DNA from: Heterodontus francisci | Lineage: Eukaryota | Assembly: GCF_036365525.1 (NCBI RefSeq) | Contig: NC_090373.1 | Location: forward strand, 100,675,082 to 100,739,081 | DNA length: 64,000 nucleotides | Direction of reading: 5' to 3' | Shown here: piece after piece, positions 7,162 through 57,150 of the stretch | Numbering within the stretch: position 1 is the stretch's first letter | How the letters are laid out: the number at the start of each line of letters is the position of its first letter | Made by a program: the position numbers and the translations under genes | Notes under the pieces: model-generated | The model's database searches: none | The model's input: only the letters and a program-made list of their open reading frames with translations | Told to the model about the DNA's origin: nothing

Positions 7162-7402
7162 AAATGCAAAATACTGCAGATGCTGGAAATCTGAAATAAA
7201 AACAAGAAATGCTGGAAATACTCAGCAGGTCTGGCAGCATCTGTGGAGAGAGAAGCAGAGTTAACGCTTCAGGTCAGTGACCCTTCATCAGAACTCATGA
7301 TGAAACTCTGATGGAAGATCACAGACCTGAAACATTAACTCTGCTTCTCTCTCCACAGATGCTGCCAGACGTACTGAGTAGTTCCATCATTTCTTGTTTT
7401 TA
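7162..7402. mobile_element. Fold-back Penelope-like element remnant with hammerhead-like motifs
   Basis: Inverted arms of about 100 bp (ctcagcaggtctggcagcatctgtggagagagaagcagagttaac / ttaactctgcttctctctccacagatgctgccagac). Minus strand 7259-7295 reads AGTT-CTGATGA-A-GGGTC-ACT-GACCT-GAAGC-GTT-AACT. Confidence 0.72.
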
Positions 7403-8222: not shown

Positions 8223-8376
8223 CTGCTTTAGCAAAACCTGTTCCATCAAAATAATTTCCTTTTTGACTATTGAGAAAGCAGACACCAACGTCGAGACTGG
8301 AGGTCGGATTATCCAAATCAAAAGATTCATCGTTCAATTTAAAGTGACGGATGCAAGCATTTATACTGTAGAGCAC
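8223..8376 (-). CDS. LAMA2: LAMA2 exon 62-equivalent (end of LG4), 154 bp
   Basis: ttacgtag|GTG...GCAG|gtaaag; VLYSINACIRHFKLNDESFDLDNPTSSLDVGVCFLNSQKGNYFDGTGFAKA. Confidence 0.95.
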
Positions 8377-24550: not shown

Positions 24551-24858
24551 GCTGAAGGTTAATATATGTTATTCCAATTGGGGCTGAGATGCTAGTGGAG
24601 GTTTTCCATTCAGGGAGAGTAGGGTTTGATATGTGATTTGACCTCATTCAGAAGGAGACAGGTGGTGAATCTCACATCAGTGGGGGAGGGTGGGCAAGAG
24701 AGAGAGAGAGAGAGAGGTCTAGTCAGTCAGGCAGACTGTTTGTGGTGGTGTAACACTTCTCCTGTTGCGGGGGACGTCTTACCAGGGGTAAGCAATGGGG
24801 CACAGGTATCTGGCTCAGAGTCTGTCCCTGTTGTCAGAAGGGAAGGGGGAAGAGGAGC

Positions 24859-25368
24859 AGAGCATTAGTCATTGGGGACTCCATAGTTAGGGGAACAGAT
24901 AGGAGGTTCTGTGGGAACGAGAGAGACTCACAGCTGGTGTGTTGCCTCCCAGGTGCCAGGGTTCGTGATGTCTCGGATCGTGTTTTTGGGGTCCTTAGGG
25001 GGGAGGGGGAGCAGCCCCAAGTCGTGGTCCACATAGGCACCAACGACATAGGTAGGAAGAGAGATGGGGATTTAAGACAGAAATTCAGGGAGCTAGGGTG
25101 GAAGCTTCGAGCGAGAACGAACAGAGTTGTTATCTCTGGGTTGTTGCCCGTGCCACGTGATAGCGAAGCAAGGAATAGGGAGAGAGAGGAGTTGAACACG
25201 TGGCTGCAGGGATGGTGTAGGAGGGAGGGTTTTGGTTTCCTGGATAATTGGAGCTCTTTCTGGGGTAGGTGGGACCTCTACAAACAGGATGGTCTTCATC
25301 TGAACCAGAGGGGTACCAATATCCTGGGGGGGAGATTTGCTAGTGCTCTTTGGGGGAGTTTAAACTAA
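24859..25368 (+). CDS. CR1 ORF1, SGNH/GDSL esterase-like C-terminal part
   Basis: In-frame ALVIGDSIVRG ... VVHIGTNDIG ... DGLHLN, the SGNH catalytic blocks typical of CR1 ORF1. Confidence 0.88.
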   Translation, partial: RALVIGDSIVRGTDRRFCGNERDSQLVCCLPGARVRDVSDRVFGVLRGEGEQPQVVVHIGTNDIGRKRDGDLRQKFRELGWKLRARTNRVVISGLLPVPRDSEARNREREELNTWLQGWCRREGFGFLDNWSSFWGRWDLYKQDGLHLNQRGTNILGGRFASALWGSLN

Positions 25369-28256
25369 TTCAGCAGGGGAATGGGAACCTAAATTGTAGT
25401 GCCAGTGTACAGGATGTTGAGAGTAGTGAGGTCAGGGATAAGGTTACAAGGACGCAAGAGGGCACTGGCAAGCAAGAACCTGGTTTAAAGTGTGTCTACT
25501 TCAATGCCAGGAGCATCTGGAATAAGGTGGGTGAGCTTGCAGCATGGGTTGGTACCTGGGATCTCGATGTAGTGGCCATTTCGGAGACATGGGTAGAGCA
25601 GGGGCAGGAATGGATGTTGCAGGTTCCAGGATTTAGATGTTTCAGTAAGAACAGAGAAGATGGTAAAAGAGGGGGGGGGGGGGGTGTGGCATTGTTAATC
25701 AAGGAGAGTATTCCAGCGACAGAAAGGACATTTGAGGACTCGTCTACTGAGGTAGTATGGGCCGAGGTTAGAAATAGGAGAGGTGAGGTCACCCTGTTGG
25801 GAGTCTTTTATAGACCTCCGAATAGTTCCAGAGATGTAGAGGAAAGGATAGCTAAGATGATTCTCGACAGGGGCGAGAGTAACAGGGTAGTTGTTATGGG
25901 GGACTTTAACTTTCCAAATATTGACTGGAAATACTATAGTTCGAGTACTTTAGATGGGTCAGTTTTTGTCCAGTGTGTGCAGGAGGGTTTTCTGACACAG
26001 TATGTAGACAGGCCAACCAGGGGCGATGCCACATTGGATTTGGTACTGGGTAATGAACCCGGCCAGGTGTTAGATTTAGATGTAGGTGAGCACTTTGGTG
26101 ATAGTGATCACAATTCGGTTAGGTTTACCTTAGCGATGGGCAGGGACAGGTATATACCGCAGGGCAAGAATTATAGCTGGGGGAAAGGAAATTATGATGC
26201 GATTAGGCAAGATTTAGGATGCGTAGGATGGGGAAGGAAACTGCAGGGGATGGGCATAATCGAAATGTGGAGCTTATTCAAGGAGCAGCTACTGCGTGTC
26301 CTTGATAAGTATGTACCTGTCAGGCAGGGAGGAAGTTGTCGAGCGAGGGAGCCGTGGTTTACTAAAGAAGTTGAAGCGCTTGTCAAGAGGAAGAAGAAGG
26401 CTTATGTTTGGATGAGACGTGAAGGCTCAGTTAGGGCGCTTGAGAGTTACAAGCTAGCCAGGAAGGATCTAAAGGGAGAGCTAAGAAGAGCAAGGAGAGG
26501 ACACGAGAAGTCATTGGCGGATAGGATCAGGGAAAACCCTAAGGCTTTCTATAGGTATATCAGGAATAAAAGAATGACTAGAGTTAGATTAGGGCCAATC
26601 AAGGATAGTAGTGGGAAGTTGTGTGTGGAATCAGAGGAGATAGGGGAAGCGTTAAATGAATATTTTGCGTCAGTATTTACAGTAGAGAAAGAAAATGTTG
26701 TCGAGGAGAATACTGAGATTCAGGCTACTAGGCTAGATGGGATTGAGGTTCACAAGGAGGAGGTGTTAGCAATTTTGGAAAGTGTGAAAATAGATAAGTC
26801 CCCTGGGCCAGATGGGATTTATCCTAGGATTCTCTGGGAAGCTAGGGAGGAGATTGCAGAGCCTTTGTCCTTGATCTTTATGTCGTCATTGTCGACAGGA
26901 ATAGTGCCGGAAGACTGGAGGATAGCAAATGTTGTCCCCTTGTTCAAGAAGGGGAGTAGAGACAGCCCTGGTAATTATAGACCTGTGAGCCTTACTTTGG
27001 TTGTGGGTAAAATGTTGGAAAAGGTTATAAGAGACAGGATTTATAATCATCTAGAGAAGAATAAGTTCATTAGCGATAGTCAGCACGGTTTTGTGAAGGG
27101 TAGGTCGTGCCTCACAAACCTTATTGAGTTTTTCGAGAAGGTGACCAAACAGGTGGATGAGGGTAAAGCAGTGGAAGTGGTGTATATGGATTTCAGTAAG
27201 GCGTTTGATAAGGTTCCCCATGGTCGGCTATTGCAGAAAATACAGAAGTATGGAGTTGAAGGTGATTTAGAGCTTTGGATCAGAAATTGGCTAGCTGAAA
27301 GAAGACAGAGGGTGGTGATTGATGGCAAATGTTCATCCTGGAGTTTAGTTTCTAGTGGTGTACCGCAAGGATCTGTTTTGGGGCCACTGCTGTTTGTCAT
27401 TTTTATAAATGACCTGGAAGAGGGTGTAGAAGGGTGGGTTAGTAAATTTGCGGATGACACTAAGGTCGGTGGAGTTGTGGATAGTGCCGAAGGATGTTGT
27501 AGGGTACAGAGGGACATAGATAGGCTGCAGAGCTGGGCTGAGAGATGGCAAATGGAGTTTAATGCGGAAAATTGTGAGGTGATTCACTTTGGAAGGAGTA
27601 ACAGGAATGCAGAGTACTGGGCTAATGGGAAGATTCTTGGTAGTGTAGATGAACAGAGAGATCTTGGTGTCCAGGTACATAAATCCCTGAAGGTTGCTAC
27701 CCAGGTTAATAGGGCTGTTAAGAAGGCATATGGTGTGTTAGCTTTTATTAGTAGGGGGATCGGGTTTCGGAGCCACGAGGTCATGCTGCAGCTGTACAAA
27801 ACTCTGGTGAGACCGCACCTGGAGTATTGCGTGCAGTTCTGGTCACCGCATTATCGGAAGGATGTGGAAGCTTTGGAAAGGGTTCAGAGGAGATTTACTG
27901 GGATGTTGCCTGGTATGGAGGGAAGGTCTTACGAGGAAAGGCTGAGGGACTTGAGGTTGTTTTCGTTGGAGAGAAGGAAGAGGAGAGGTGACTTAATAGA
28001 GACATATAAGATAATCAGAGGGTTAGATAGGGTGGATAGTGAGAGTCTTTTTCCTCGGATGGTGATGGCAAACACGAGGGGACATAGCTTTAAGTTGAGG
28101 GGTGATAGATATAGGACAGATGTCAGAGGTAGTTTCTTTACTCAGAGAGTAGTAGGGGCGTGGAACGCCCTGCCTGCAGCAGTAGTAGACTCGCCAACTT
28201 TAAGGGCATTTAAGTGGTCATTGGATAGACATATGGATGAAAATGGAATAGTGTAG
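25350..28256 (+). CDS. CR1 ORF2: AP endonuclease + reverse transcriptase, 968 aa, no stops or frameshifts
   Basis: YFNARS, ISETW, VMGDFN and SDHN (APE); [29 protein letters not shown] and FADD (RT). The true start codon is uncertain. Confidence 0.95.
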   Translation: MGEFKLIQQGNGNLNCSASVQDVESSEVRDKVTRTQEGTGKQEPGLKCVYFNARSIWNKVGELAAWVGTWDLDVVAISETWVEQGQEWMLQVPGFRCFSKNREDGKRGGGGGVALLIKESIPATERTFEDSSTEVVWAEVRNRRGEVTLLGVFYRPPNSSRDVEERIAKMILDRGESNRVVVMGDFNFPNIDWKYYSSSTLDGSVFVQCVQEGFLTQYVDRPTRGDATLDLVLGNEPGQVLDLDVGEHFGDSDHNSVRFTLAMGRDRYIPQGKNYSWGKGNYDAIRQDLGCVGWGRKLQGMGIIEMWSLFKEQLLRVLDKYVPVRQGGSCRAREPWFTKEVEALVKRKKKAYVWMRREGSVRALESYKLARKDLKGELRRARRGHEKSLADRIRENPKAFYRYIRNKRMTRVRLGPIKDSSGKLCVESEEIGEALNEYFASVFTVEKENVVEENTEIQATRLDGIEVHKEEVLAILESVKIDKSPGPDGIYPRILWEAREEIAEPLSLIFMSSLSTGIVPEDWRIANVVPLFKKGSRDSPGNYRPVSLTLVVGKMLEKVIRDRIYNHLEKNKFISDSQHGFVKGRSCLTNLIEFFEKVTKQVDEGKAVEVVYMDFSKAFDKVPHGRLLQKIQKYGVEGDLELWIRNWLAERRQRVVIDGKCSSWSLVSSGVPQGSVLGPLLFVIFINDLEEGVEGWVSKFADDTKVGGVVDSAEGCCRVQRDIDRLQSWAERWQMEFNAENCEVIHFGRSNRNAEYWANGKILGSVDEQRDLGVQVHKSLKVATQVNRAVKKAYGVLAFISRGIGFRSHEVMLQLYKTLVRPHLEYCVQFWSPHYRKDVEALERVQRRFTGMLPGMEGRSYEERLRDLRLFSLERRKRRGDLIETYKIIRGLDRVDSESLFPRMVMANTRGHSFKLRGDRYRTDVRGSFFTQRVVGAWNALPAAVVDSPTLRAFKWSLDRHMDENGIV

Positions 28257-31980: not shown

Positions 31981-33924
31981 CCAATTACCATATATCAAAA
32001 TGTATAAAAGTTCCATTTTACTCTATGTAGTGCAAGAAATAAATGGTGAAAGCCCATTTTCGTTAGTTCACAATGCCATCCTTCCTGCGTAGAATGATCT
32101 TATTGTAAAGAAACAGTCAAAGTCCAAGCTAACCTTTTTTTAAAAAGACTTTCGTTTTGAACATTGTGTAAGATGATTAAAGGGAATTTGTGTTCGAACA
32201 AGGATTTTTAGGGGATAGGGAATAGAAGGTCATGTTAGCATTTCCTGGGGATTATGAAAACTGTTCAAACACCATTATTAGATGACAAAAGGTACCAGAA
32301 TGGAGCCATGATCAGTAGCAAGCTTGCTGTTCCTCAGTTCAGCGAGATGCACATCCTAAGAAGCAGTAAGTGTAAGTAAAAAAAGTTAGAGATTGAAGCA
32401 AAGAATATGCTCATGTCAACTATTTCTAGTAAAGCATTTTAAAATGCTGTTAATGATGCACATATCAAAAGCCTTGTGTATATTGATAATAAAAACAATT
32501 AAACTGAGCTACATTAGAAAGAAATTCTGATGCTAGACTTGTGTTAGTAACCAAGTTTCTATCTGCACATGCTAAAAAGGTAAATTAAAATGGTCCCAAT
32601 GAGGTGAATACATTTTTAAATTATATAATCCATGTTGTTATTATGGATCATCAATGTTAAACGATGTAGAATTTAGAACATAGAAACAAGCCAGATAAAA
32701 GGCCATCGACCTAAAATGTTAACTCTGTTTCTCTCTCCACAGATGCTGCTAGACCTGCTGAGTATTTCCAATGCTCCCTGTTTTTATTACAGAGACAAGA
32801 CATTCAGCCCAACCAGTCCATGCTGGTGTGTATGCTCCACACAAGCTTACTCCCATCCCTCTTCATCTAACTCCATTAGCACGATCTTCCAATTCCTTTC
32901 TCTCGCATGTGCTAATCTAATTTCCCCTTTAATGCATCTACGCTGTTCGCCTCAACTACTCCTGGTGGTAGTATAACTCCAAATGTTACATTTTCACTGG
33001 CAACTGAACCGTTCAAGAGGATCATGAGAGTGAGGTCAGGAAAGCATCACCAAGCCAATTTTGGCAATTATAATTACCCTACATTTTTCAAAAATAAGCA
33101 GATAAAACCAATAACAAAGGGCAGTTCATATGCCCAGTGAGTAGAATTCCCAATTTTTTCAGTCTCTTCAAAGTGTTTATGATCCCAGACCAAATCTCGA
33201 TGGAGATGGTGATGAGAGACAGTAGTTGCCAATTTGACTGTAAAAAATAAAACGTTAGGAACTCAATCCCATTGCTACCAATGTTTTGCAATAAATGTCC
33301 CTCATTTTATATCACTTTTGTGAAGTAATTTAACTGATGCAGTTAAATAAAGGTTTCATTTGCCACTAATGCTGCACAGATAAAGAAACATAGCAAGTGG
33401 TCTTTTACCTACATAAATATGTTGGCTGTCCATTTATAAGTGATAACAGTATAAAGAGGCAATTCACAAAGATGTAAGCAATTTATATAATCTGTTTAAA
33501 AATAGCATTTTGTCTGTTGATCTGTGTTAATTTTCAGTTAGCGTCAATAAGTAAATCATAATATATTTGTCATTATAATTGTGACTTGATGCTCTGTGCT
33601 ATCAATCACTGTATGATTTATATTAATTATTCCCAGAGCCAAAGAAGCATTTATCAAATTTGACCTCCCAGTGAGACGTCATTACAGGAGAACTTTAAGT
33701 TTCCTGGTACCAGCGGTTAGCCTTGACCCCATCAACTCAATTTTGGAAATCTGTGGGCAGAGTCCATCTGAATCTGCAAATAATACTGCTGGCAAGAAAG
33801 CATGAACACATGAGATCACCTGCTATATACTAGAAAGATGAATCAACTTTCTTTGATTTGGAAGTGGGAATGACTTCCATTAATGCATCATGCAATTTAT
33901 GCTCATTTGGAAATAGAAACTTAC

Positions 33925-34105
33925 AGGAGCAGGTGTAGGAATTCTTTTCAGTTCTGAGATAGGTTTGACTGTGATTTCAGCTGAGATTCCAGTCGCTGTC
34001 TCAATCTCCTCATCTTCATCAGGAAGTGGTTTTGAATGTTTTAGGGTTGGGCACCTGCCAATGTCTGCATTCTCAAAAGATACTGGTTGAGCAAAGTCTA
34101 GCGGT
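33925..34105 (-). CDS. LAMA2: LAMA2 exon 58-equivalent (LG3 end and LG3-LG4 linker), 181 bp
   Basis: tctcttag|A...CCT|gtaagt; PLDFAQPVSFENADIGRCPTLKHSKPLPDEDEEIETATGISAEITVKPISELKRIPTPAP. Confidence 0.94.
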
Positions 34106-34299
34106 CTAAGAGAAAAAACAAATATGTAGAAGAATAATTGTATAGCTAAAATTAATCCTATAATAAGGAGCACTGCAAGAAAGGAACAGCTATTTATAAA
34201 AGAATAAAGTACTGCAGGTGCTGGAAATTTGAATTAAAAACAGAAATTGCTGGAAATACTCAGCAGGTTTGGGAGCATCTGTGGAGAGAGAAACAGAGT

Positions 34300-37150: not shown

Positions 37151-37327
37151 ACTGAGTTAACAACTAAATTCCATATACAGCCTTCAAAAGGCATGATACT
37201 TTTTAACTGACTGACTTGGAATGAGACAGGAACACCTCCAACAAACAGTCTTTTAATGTTGAGAGGCAGATCATTGGGTAATCGTTGTCTTTGAGCTCTT
37301 TCTTCATTCACTTGCACAATGAGCAAC
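37151..37327 (-). CDS. LAMA2: LAMA2 exon 57-equivalent (LG3), 177 bp
   Basis: gctgtcag|G...GT|gtaagt; LLIVQVNEERAQRQRLPNDLPLNIKRLFVGGVPVSFQVSQLKSIMPFEGCIWNLVVNS. Confidence 0.95.
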
Positions 37328-40222: not shown

Positions 40223-40308
40223 TATTACATGCTCAGCGGCACATAAATAAATACTTAAAAGATGTTAATTGTTACAAATAAGACAATATAACTTATTGTA
40301 AACAACAC

Positions 40309-40485
40309 CTGTCCAGTTTGGCGGCGTTTTCTCCTGAGTTGAGCTGGAGCCTTTCCACTTCCATAAAGTATCATTCCTGTCTCGTTTTTAGTACTGAAGG
40401 AAAGAGATATTTCTGTGCCTACATTCAATGAGTGTGGCTGAAGCTCAACAAATCCAGGTTTATGGAAGCTAACAGTGAAGACATT
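40309..40485 (-). CDS. LAMA2: LAMA2 exon 55-equivalent (LG3 start, furin-type site), 177 bp
   Basis: ttcttgacag|AAT...CAG|gtgttg; NVFTVSFHKPGFVELQPHSLNVGTEISLSFSTKNETGMILYGSGKAPAQLRRKRRQTGQ. Confidence 0.97.
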
Positions 40486-51019: not shown

Positions 51020-51320
51020 AGAATATCCTGAAATATAAACAGAAAATTCTGGAAATATTCAGCAGGTCTAGCAGCTTCTGTGGAGACAGAAACAGAGATA
51101 ACAATTCAGATCTGTGACCTTTCATCAGAAGTCTCTCCACAGTTGCAGCAGACCTGCAGAGTATTTCCAGCATTTTCTGTTTTCATTTCGTTTTGTGTGA
51201 TTTTGGACCAAGGGGCTGACGGTATCTCGTAAATGTTCTTTGCGTTGTTGTGGCTGGTGGCTCTGGCAAAAATCACACAACATTTCAGATTTCCAGTATC
51301 GGTAATATTTTGCCTTTGTA
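51020..51320. mobile_element. Fold-back Penelope-like remnant
   Basis: Arms ttcagcaggtctagcagcttctgtggagac / gtctctccacagttgcagcagacctgcagag; minus strand CTGATGAAAGGTCACAGATCTGAA. Confidence 0.65.
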
Positions 51321-51899: not shown

Positions 51900-52900
51900 G
51901 CAAAGTACTTGCGGATGCTGAAAATCTGAAATAAGAGGAGAAAATGCAGGAAACACTCAACGGCTGGAATTTTCCCAGCTTGCCGCTGATATCGGCGGCA
52001 AGCTTCAAAGATGGCGGGGCGCACACGGCGGCTCACTCACATGTCCAGGGCGTAATGCACGCCCCTGATGATGTGGAGGGGCGGGCGCTTCATTGCTGGC
52101 AAAGGCGTGCGGCACCACTGCGCAGGCGCCGGTATCAGTCCTTTATTTTAATTTAAATTTTTATAGCTACAGTAGTTTAAAAATAAAAGTGAGAAATGCA
52201 TTAAAAGTTTCAAGCCCCTCTCCCAATGCCCCTCCAATGAAATGACTAAAAACTTTATTAATTAACATCTCCACCCAAAAAAACTAACTTTACGATCCTG
52301 CCCTTTCCCCACCGAACTTTTTTCACTTTAACTTTCAACCCCTTCCCAGCAGCCCGTCCACCAATCGCAATGGATTACCCCATTTCACCAACCCCCCGCC
52401 CCCCCAACACCCCCACCGCCTTGAAAACTTACCTGCTCTCCCCTCCCAACCAGTATTCCAGAAGGCACAGGAGTTCCGGCAACCGGCTGGAATATCGCAG
52501 CGGGATGGCCATCGTGACAAGGTGAGTATTCATTCATTAATTTAAACAGATTTAATATTTTAATGAAGTTCCCATGGCCAAGCAGCAGGGGGCCACAACA
52601 AGGCCTCGCTGCCGGTACAATGGGGTGGGGCCTTCCCGAAGTCAAGGCCCATGTCGGTCCTCTCCCAGAGGTATTTTCCGGGCTCCCCCTGCCATGACCC
52701 CCGACATCGGGGGGCTATTAAAATCCAGCTCAACAGCTGAGGCAGCATCTGTGGAGAGGGAAATGTCAGGTCAACAATTCAGGTCGATAATCTTTCATCA
52801 GAACTGATGAACAGGGTTCTGACAAAAGGTTGTCATCCTGAAATGTTAACCTTATGCTCCTCTCTCCACAAATGGTGCCTGGACTGCCCAGTATTTCAAT
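51900..52900. mobile_element. Fold-back Penelope-like remnant interrupted by a MITE
   Basis: gcggatgctgaaaatctgaaata...ggaaacactcaac | agctgaggcagcatctgtggagag...tcatcagaac...ctctctccacaaatggtgcctgga. Confidence 0.62.
51962..52731 (-). mobile_element. Harbinger-type MITE (reverse orientation to the 1873 and 38885 copies)
   Basis: TIRs ggctggaatttt ... aaaatccagctc; 3-bp TSD AAC. Confidence 0.8.
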
Positions 52901-54499: not shown

Positions 54500-54662
54500 C
54501 AGATCCTTTGTGGCAAGGTACATGAGTAGTGCATCTGAAGTAAAAGTCCTGAATTTGAATACAATTGCTGACACATTTGGATTCCAGCGAGTTGGTCGAC
54601 CTACACCTGCATAGCCTTCTCCGTCAAACTGTACGGTGCCTTCAGTGTCAGTGGGTTGAGGA
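54500..54662 (-). CDS. LAMA2: LAMA2 exon 50-equivalent (LG2 start), 163 bp
   Basis: ttttatag|T...CTG|gtaaat; PQPTDTEGTVQFDGEGYAGVGRPTRWNPNVSAIVFKFRTFTSDALLMYLATKDL. Confidence 0.97.
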
Positions 54663-55290: not shown

Positions 55291-55746
55291 ACTGACAGTT
55301 CCACCCTTATCATAGCCCATTTGAAGTGGTAGTGTGGCAAATGCTCTATTTAAGCTTGAGTCTAGACCCCCACCTGCCAAGAATGAGGCATATTAATTTT
55401 GTCATATGAACATTGAATTTTAAACCATTGCTGGAGTGAAGAAATGACTTTTTTTTTTACAGATCACCAGATAATGGGCTGGAAGGACATGTGCTTACTA
55501 AGAGATTCTGCTTGTGGAGACAAAGGACTATTCCCTGCTCCAATTAACCCAAATGGATTTTGATCACCAGATATTGAAGGTGTAAGGAAGTGCATTGCAG
55601 AAACTGCTAAGGTACAATCCACAAACCTCGCAAGAGAGACTGTTCCAAATAAGGAGCTCGTCACATGACTAACCTGCTAGGCAACAAAAACAAGAAATGC
55701 TGGAATCACTCAGCAGGTCTGGCAGCATCTGTGGAAAGAGAAGCAG

Positions 55747-55783
55747 AGTTAACGTTTCGGGTCAGTGACCCTTCTTCGGAACT
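55747..55783 (-). ncRNA. Minimal type-I hammerhead-ribozyme-like motif (left arm)
   Basis: AGUU-CCGAAGA-A-GGGUC-ACU-GACCC-GAAAC-GUU-AACU: helix I AGUU/AACU, helix II 5 bp, palindromic AACGUU helix III; the core has U4C relative to CUGANGA. Confidence 0.6.
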
Positions 55784-56025
55784 GACAAATATTAGAAAAG
55801 TCACAGATTATAAACAAGTGAGGTGGGGGTGGGGCAAGAGATAACAAAGGAGAAGGTGCAGATTGGACCAGGCCACATAGCTGACCAAAAGGTCACGGAG
55901 AAAAGGCAAACAATATGTTAATGGTGTGTTATGTGGCCTGGTCCAATCTGCACCTTCTCCTTTGTTATCTCTTGCCCCACCCCCACCTCACTTGTTTATA
56001 ATCTGTGACTTTTCTAATATTTGTC

Positions 56026-56062
56026 AGTTCCGAAGAAGGGTCACTGCCCCGAAACGTTAACT
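56026..56062 (+). ncRNA. Minimal type-I hammerhead-ribozyme-like motif (right arm)
   Basis: AGUU-CCGAAGA-A-GGGUC-ACU-GCCCC-GAAAC-GUU-AACU; same as the left arm with one helix II mismatch. Confidence 0.55.
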
Positions 56063-56629
56063 CTGCTTCTCTTTCCACAGATGCTTCCAGACCTGCTGAG
56101 TGATTCCAGCATTTCTTGTTTTTGTTTCAGATTTCCAGCATCCGCAGTATTTTGCTTTTAACCTGCTAGGCAACCTGGGTTTTTTTGAATTGTGCCACAG
56201 AGAAAGGGAGAAGGTAGTTTTGAACTGGAACCTAGAACAAGAAAACCTCTCTCTCCTGGCTGTCTCTCTCGCCTTCTCCCAAGCCACCGGACCCACCAAA
56301 GATACGTAAACCTCAAGAGAGAAAAGACTCCTACATCGAAACAAGTTGAAGCATGAACTGGGCCTGAATGAATAGCAGGACTTACCGGCAACCAAACATT
56401 TCCCCTTTTTTCCTTCTACTTTTTCTGTCTCTATTTGTGTGTATGTTTATCGCATATGCATGCTAGTGTGGTCGCATCGGGTAAACTAAAAACACTGTGT
56501 TTTAAAATTAAACCCTGTTACCGTTAAACCAGACAAAGGCTGAGAAGGATCCCCTAGACCCCTTCTCACCTGGTCGTAACAGAAGTCAGTGATGTAGATT
56601 TGAATCCCACGGCTGCCAGAATGTGAATG

Positions 56630-57150
56630 GGGGCTATGGTAGCATAGTGACTATGTTACTAGACTAGTAATTCTGATGAAAGGTCATCAACCTAAAACAT
56701 TAACACTGCTTTTCTCTTCCATAGATGCTGCCTCACCTGCTGAGCATTTCCAGTTTTATCAGTTTGTGTGTTAGTAATCCAGAGGCCTGAACTAATGATC
56801 CAGAGACATGAGTTCAAATCCCACCATGGCAACAGGGGAATTTAAATTCAATTAATTGAATAAATTTGAAATAAAAAGCTAGTCCCAATAATGATGACAG
56901 TGAAACTACTGGATTGTTGCAAAAATTCATCAGGTTCAATACTGACTTTTAGGGAAGGAAATCTGCTGTCTTCTCCTGGTCTGGCCTATATGTGACTTCA
57001 GACCCATTGAAATGTGGCCAACTCTTAACTGCCCTCTGAACTAGCCTAGAAAACCCTTCAGTTGTAGTCAAGAAGGCAGCTCAGCACCACCTTCTCAAGG
57101 GCAAATGCTGGCCCTGCCAGTGATGCCCACATCTCATGAATGAATTTAAA
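56630..57150 (+). mobile_element. tRNA-headed SINE made of the 5' head and 3' tail of the 14030-23140 LINE
   Basis: Shares gttcaaatcccacca, tttagggaaggaaa.ctgc and tctggc.tatatgtga.t.cagacc with 14080-14330, and caccaccttctcaagg with 23090; carries a 100-bp insertion at 56672-56771. Confidence 0.75.

Follow-up and report, generated by a model that had tools for sequence, protein, structure and literature searches.

Insertions of Penelope-like elements (PLEs) have been described as carrying an inverted, 5′-truncated copy and a one-sided tail (PMC8557442, PMC3846280), and the hammerhead motifs of metazoan PLEs as lying in pairs on opposite strands, 100-700 bp apart (PMC4209133). In an in vitro system for an anole PLE, reverse transcription (RT) started at two sites, both target strands were nicked and extended, and insertion proceeded without a need for ribozyme cleavage (PMC11167929). 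A CX2-5CxxC motif between the RT and endonuclease (EN) domains is given as a mark of the Neptune and Nematis clades (PMC8557442). A hammerhead with C in place of U at core position 4 (U4C) is known from a viroid, in which its activity was considerably lower in vitro but sufficient in vivo (PMC3088659, citing Ambros and Flores 1998). Here we analyzed a window of 64,000 nucleotides (the whole stretch of DNA under study) from the genome of Heterodontus francisci, which contains a short fold-back insertion in the region of the LAMA2 gene. The architecture of this insertion, with inverted pseudo-LTRs (pLTRs), a tail and minimal hammerheads on opposite strands, is already published; the new point is the PLE lineage with the U4C core. 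Our literature search found no report of U4C in PLE hammerheads, though older ribozyme papers may contain it, and in the two supplements of PMC4209133 that were searched, the string CCGA occurs twice, both times outside the core.

The insertion occupies positions 55686..56158 of the window (473 bp). The preliminary description had proposed inverted arms of ~195 bp around a 50-bp spacer, and this anatomy was confirmed: segment 55686-55879 pairs with 55930-56123 over 194 bp with 2 mismatches (at 56047 and 56086), and the unpaired 50-bp spacer (55880..55929, minus strand) represents the extra 5′ reach of the left arm in the element, beyond the right arm. We numbered the element from the first base of helix I of the hammerhead motif, +1, which is 56026 in the right arm. 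The left arm (55686..55931, minus strand) is an inverted, 5′-truncated pLTR copy spanning element positions −148 to +98 and has no tail. The right arm (55930..56158, plus strand) is a sense, 5′-truncated pLTR copy spanning −96 to +133, and it alone ends in a 35-bp PLE tail (56124..56158, plus strand), which in full elements continues into the 5′ body and the open reading frame (ORF). The arms are joined over 2 bp of microhomology (55930..55931, unstranded). Compared with a related copy, L031, the left arm is identical at 249 of 249 bases and the right arm at 229 of 231; the copy at LAMA2 contains no ORF.

Two hammerhead motifs, one per strand, are arranged head to head within the insertion, and there is no same-strand tandem. 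Both read AGUU-CCGAAGA-A-stem II-GAAAC-GUU-AACU, as the preliminary description had claimed; its picture of one motif per strand holds for their presence but not for their equivalence, as the plus-strand motif has a broken stem II. The minus-strand motif (55747..55783), on the LAMA2 sense strand, is a minimal type I hammerhead with a U4C core and an intact 5-bp stem II, and its predicted cut lies between 55751 and 55750. The plus-strand motif (56026..56062) has the same U4C core (56031) and a predicted cut after 56058, while a private A>C change at 56047 breaks stem II. A scan of the insertion against Rfam returned no hammerhead family and only sub-threshold matches of the hairpin type. A predicted pLTR promoter (55997..56029, plus strand) combines an initiator-like site at 56026, at which transcripts would start, with a TATA-like hexamer located 29 bases before it.

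An older dispersed host repeat (approximate limits 55540..56480, unstranded) is broken by the insertion. A first look gave 6,589 candidates for this host repeat, and its copies are about 75-90% alike. The insertion is bounded by an exact 16-bp repeat at 55670..55685 and 56159..56174 (both plus strand). The last 3 bases of the left copy also match the element and constitute target-template microhomology, and the first 2 bases of the right copy match the element as well. All 11 other host-repeat copies that were fetched have just one 16-mer between the flanks (in 2 of them with one end base unaligned), and the 16-bp repeat is therefore a true target-site duplication (TSD), in agreement with the earlier claim.

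The nearest recognized LAMA2 exon, from the LG region (54500..54662, minus strand), comes 1,024 bases after the insertion in the direction of transcription and matches laminin alpha-2 with E = 1.5e-22 (a solved LAMA2 chain). This match bears out the proposed LAMA2 pre-mRNA context, with LAMA2 on the minus strand. Since no upstream LAMA2 exon was found within the 64-kb window, the insertion would be located in an intron by inference. Five candidate LG-region exons were noted on the minus strand (54500-54662, 40276-40393, 37151-37327, 33925-34105 and 8223-8376), of which only 54500-54662 and 37151-37327 are backed by a library match, the latter to Laminin_G. Elsewhere in the window, a 970-codon open frame at 25344-28253 (plus strand) looks by eye like a LINE endonuclease-RT ORF and is preceded by a shorter frame at 24754-25365.

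The pLTR repeat that forms the arms sits directly behind ORFs with RT and GIY-YIG matches, which corroborates the Penelope-like origin suggested in the preliminary description. The longer copies with a GIY-YIG/RT ORF that it had proposed to look for were found, including two intact elements, L390 and L391. The complete order of pLTR, tail, 5′ body, ORF and pLTR is present in L163, partial tandems of the form pLTR-ORF-pLTR in L163 and L383-L392, and a 924-codon open frame in 3 of the 20 long copies fetched. The 915-aa ORF of L390 and L391 matched RVT_1 (E = 6e-6 and 3e-5) and GIY-YIG (E = 0.0018), all under the Pfam curated cut-offs; the DKG, YIDD and YIG motifs could be read directly, and a C-X4-C-X2-C motif upstream of the GIY-YIG domain fits the CX2-5CxxC linker. 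This ORF makes the parent an EN+ PLE, whose linker, by the definition cited, would be of the Neptune/Nematis type. Both pLTRs of L390 and of L391 carry CCGAAGA.

Many full-length copies (L183, L185, L188, L192, L195, L203, L206, L208 and others) have an upstream pLTR that reaches from −122 to beyond −1300, well ahead of the predicted start, a reach that could not come from one transcript begun there. The window itself contains older pLTR copies of the same superfamily at 7163-7401, 32708-32793, 34206-34299, 51028-51316, 52729-52807 and 56671-56753, one pair of which is head to head. The canonical CTGATG core is present in those at 7163-7401, 51028-51130 and 56671.

The survey of family arms used 84 loci from among the first 100 genomic hits of a 34-mer located downstream of the motif, all in the initial 27 Mb of one contig; a few apparently duplicated or already included places were omitted. 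Across these loci, 121 arms were mapped, and 108 remained after filtering. The end statistics thus describe loci chosen by exact 34-mers. Arm 3′ ends fell into two classes, at about +94 to +108 and +133 to +143, and 16 of 17 fold-backs contained one arm of each class. A TSD of 12-19 bp was present in 16 of the 17 (15-16 bp in 11 of those 16), the exception being a pair of two short arms with no TSD. Arm 5′ ends varied independently between partners, from about 40 bp to >2 kb. Fold-backs were a minority of the arms observed, as 74 of the 108 had no partner in the 2.5-3 kb fetched. One fold-back, L271 (G000:C1:18896450-18898900), combines a CCGAAGA arm with a CCGATGA arm (95% versus 90% identity to the reference) and possibly derives from two templates. 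Another, L169 (G000:C1:235641000-235648500), is present three times at intervals of about 2.0-2.2 kb, always with the same arm ends, and represents host DNA duplicated in tandem, not separate insertions.

Collectively, these data make it very likely that the insertion is a doubly 5′-truncated, head-to-head copy from the youngest subfamily of an autonomous PLE, probably built on site by two RT events. In such a mechanism, the target would be opened by a 16-bp staggered cut, each of the two nicks would prime RT, and the two reactions would have start sites separated by about 35 bases on the uncut RNA of the element. Joining of the two cDNAs over the 2-bp microhomology would then leave a dead head-to-head hairpin.

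Two other origins were weighed against this reading. It had earlier been suggested that the insertion may belong to a non-autonomous, retrozyme-like family, and a retrozyme- or MITE-like fold-back moving as a 473-bp unit would agree with the frequency of fold-backs in this element family and with one copy, L003, that matches across the centre (89% over positions 151-473). We regard it as very improbable nevertheless: genome matches to the insertion split at the junction into 1-246 and 237-473, none of 40 scored candidates is a second whole unit, arm lengths and junction points differ among the 17 fold-backs, the insertion lacks a same-strand motif tandem, and the motif belongs to intact, autonomous coding elements. 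Improbable as well, if to a lesser degree, is a single cDNA folded back on itself in place of two separately primed cDNAs. Such self-priming has been proposed for inverted PLE structures (PMC3846280), the arms of the insertion are alike except for 2 changes, and the arms of L394 and L395 have rare variants in common. However, the shorter-ended arm often extends further 5′ than its partner (−148 versus −96 here; also in L223, L244 and L271), and it cannot be the partner's copy because it contains sequence that the partner lacks; in L271, moreover, the arms carry different cores.

In the left arm and in the intact elements, the motif has the layout of a minimal hammerhead, as had been proposed, with helix I, an unpaired base 9.1, a G10.1-C11.1 pair in stem II, a palindromic helix III and a UH cleavage site. 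It deviates from the CUGANGA core by the C at position 4, present in both arms, while GAAA and the rest of the core are intact. One 34-mer was counted in the genome by exact match, which yielded 30,994 copies with CCGAAGA, 1,435 with CTGAAGA and 1,292 with CCAAAGA, the last serving as a control for CpG decay. As positions 4 and 5 form a CpG and the CTG count is near that of the CCA control, these counts point to post-insertion decay of CCGAAGA as the source of the CTGAAGA copies. The same control led us to reject a separate CUG subfamily with the young stem II, despite there being 143 more copies of CTG than of CCA. Older sisters carry CUGA(U/A)GA; for such canonical sisters, a CTGATGA pattern matched 11,502 times and a C(C/T)GAAGA pattern including U11.1 matched 8,218 times, the latter with CCG in 17 of the first 100 matches listed.

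Divergence was calculated for 174 arms that span −95 to +98 and come from mixed, motif-selected searches. Mean pairwise non-CpG divergence was 2.7% for CCGAAGA/G-C (n = 110), 4.4% for CCGATGA (n = 5), 6.2% for CTGAAGA/G-U (n = 16) and 10.1% for CTGATGA (n = 4), and the 13 CTGAAGA/G-C arms had the majority bases of the young group at other positions. Three marker groups, which account for 118 of 172 anchored arms reaching +1, have C at position 4 in 60 of 61 (the young group), 18 of 23 and 7 of 34 arms. The preliminary description had left a choice between an active core variant of a recently mobile subfamily and a dead ribozyme. The core proved to be a trait of a subfamily, the youngest one, that is present in intact elements, and did not arise by decay of this copy. 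There is no need to assume that positions 4 and 7 compensate for each other, C4 being found with both U7 and A7. Other lineage-level changes affect N7, loop II and the 10.1-11.1 pair (from A-U to G-U to G-C), and the C4 lineages hold the canonical G-C. This pattern suggests that the fold was still under selection, although there are only about five such events and the motif is also subject to overlapping promoter constraints.

The 5′ ends of the arms bear on the form of the copied RNA. Among 100 non-edge arms, 42 ended at −2 to +4 and none at +31 to +37. In an older, mostly canonical set, 15 of 44 ends fell at −2 to +4 and 0 of 44 at the cut site, and the whole set holding these arms, in which 36 of 70 loci had been picked for the older marker, had 1 of 80 ends there. 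Because the ends pile up at +1 and not at the cut site, inserted copies would derive from uncut RNA whatever the core; neither core shows a pile of cut-site ends, and such ends therefore do not separate U4C from canonical hammerheads. Uncut templates would agree with the in vitro finding for PAc, the Poseidon element of Anolis (PMC11167929). A G stands in front of 13 of 20 ends at +1/+2 versus 10 of 58 elsewhere, which is expected from the copying of a cap, although microhomology with the partner arm may also supply it.

In four of the 20 long copies, with joins at different points, the +1 end directly abuts mid-ORF sequence: L393 (G000 C5:15.79 Mb), L394 (C4:189.32 Mb), L395 (C15:31.04 Mb) and L396 (C1:8.64 Mb). 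Three of them have a rare variant common to both pLTR pieces, and the arms of L394 have the same join. Splicing was rejected as the cause, since no GT follows the body breakpoint when read against other copies; the joins look like template jumps after run-off at the cap, or copies of such a product. Copying might begin on uncut RNA at 100-135 bases downstream of the cap, run off the cap like a retroviral strong-stop product and jump to the 3′ part of the RNA, and cutting of the 5′ motif would remove the transfer sequence. The pile of ends at +1, the preceding G and the joins to mid-ORF sequence are hints for a tentative and rather doubtful idea, namely that the most successful lineage gained by turning its hammerhead down (U4C) and tightening stem II, and so spared the 5′ transfer sequence.

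As for the ribozyme itself, the reading that we favor, at about an even chance, is that the U4C motif retains weakened activity, assisted by protein or by dimer formation and dispensable for copying, whereas full activity appears unlikely. A somewhat less probable but serious contender is a dead ribozyme in the youngest subfamily, where the motif would persist as a promoter and protein-binding sequence; an initiator would lie at +1, and a downstream element may lie near +26 to +33. This alternative bears on the ribozyme alone and does not conflict with an origin by two RT events. It would fit the much weaker in vitro activity of U4C in the viroid (PMC3088659), the dispensability of cleavage for insertion in vitro (PMC11167929), the lack of copies starting at the cut site and the overlap of the motif with the predicted start site. 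It is opposed by the viroid U4C hammerhead, which stays functional in vivo (PMC3088659), and, weakly, by the few lineage changes at N7, loop II and 10.1-11.1, which spare the core.

Structure prediction further distinguishes the two motifs at LAMA2. Stem II pair probabilities were 0.00-0.10 for the right motif versus 0.98-1.0 for the left one, which is predicted to fold like the motif of the intact elements. For a dimer, ViennaRNA gave −13.7 for the drawn hammerhead, which is far less favorable than the −24.8 of a misfolded dimer with exchanged stem II. The LAMA2 pre-mRNA carries the left motif, and its antisense arm is transcribed first. The full hairpin is predicted at −390 to −394 kcal/mol, and the duplex would cover the intact motif on the LAMA2 strand, in line with the earlier proposal that the long hairpin silences cleavage. 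With the stem II of the right motif broken and the left motif buried in the duplex, behind its antisense arm, it is unlikely on these models that either would cut host RNA at this locus.

A-to-I editing of the hairpin is plausible from the predicted fold. Long, near-perfect duplexes are edited in other animals, and the LAMA2 pre-mRNA would contain such a duplex of 194 bp. Among 13 RNA data sets, all of them contigs of other samples, the best contained a 0.26 share of the sequence words and none contained half. Two alignments over the locus showed mapping to multiple places across the whole element family; their A>G rows thus cannot be taken as editing, and no start, end or poly(A) site was visible. 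A role of the hairpin in the regulation of LAMA2, whether by serving ADAR or Dicer as a substrate or by acting as a switchable ribozyme, nevertheless seems scarcely credible to us. The insertion is very young, lies about 1 kb from the nearest recognized exon within another repeat and is one among tens of thousands of family copies, and the data examined held no sign of conservation or of a role.

The lineages of different age form a core series of CUGAUGA, CUGAAGA, CCGAUGA and CCGAAGA, and thereby a natural test of whether PLE retrotransposition needs cleavage. Searches fixed on CUGANGA would overlook at least 31,000 motifs in this genome.

Among known systems, the insertions described for EN+ PLEs (Pen2a_Av of Adineta, PMC3846280; PMC8557442) likewise have a head-to-head, inverted, 5′-truncated copy, a one-sided 30-40-bp tail and a TSD, and TATA and initiator sequences are reported in their pLTRs as predicted here. 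The insertion at LAMA2 differs in that both halves are cut to about 240 bp, no ORF is left and the TSD is 16 bp instead of the 8-10 bp of the Adineta examples. The minimal type I hammerheads of metazoan PLEs, as presented in PMC4209133, have the same 4-bp helix I, unpaired base after A9, G10.1-C11.1 pair, palindromic 15.2-16.2 and GUU site; the core variant given there is U3-A8, whereas the lineage described here has fixed C at position 4. In its two RT start sites bounding the tail, its unprocessed RNA as main template and its hammerhead at the pLTR-ORF boundary, PAc (PMC11167929) resembles the present element as read from its copies, but the two have different clade features, the ORF found here having a Cys linker. 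The viroid hammerhead (PMC3088659) carries the same core substitution in a natural replicating RNA, with a full helix III and tertiary contacts where the present motif is minimal. The animal non-LTR retrozymes (bioRxiv 10.64898/2026.07.22.740005) are, like this insertion, noncoding, hammerhead bearing and related to pLTRs; they are described as repeating in tandem on one strand, with two or more complete motifs, whereas the LAMA2 copy has one inverted pair, which was probably made at insertion.
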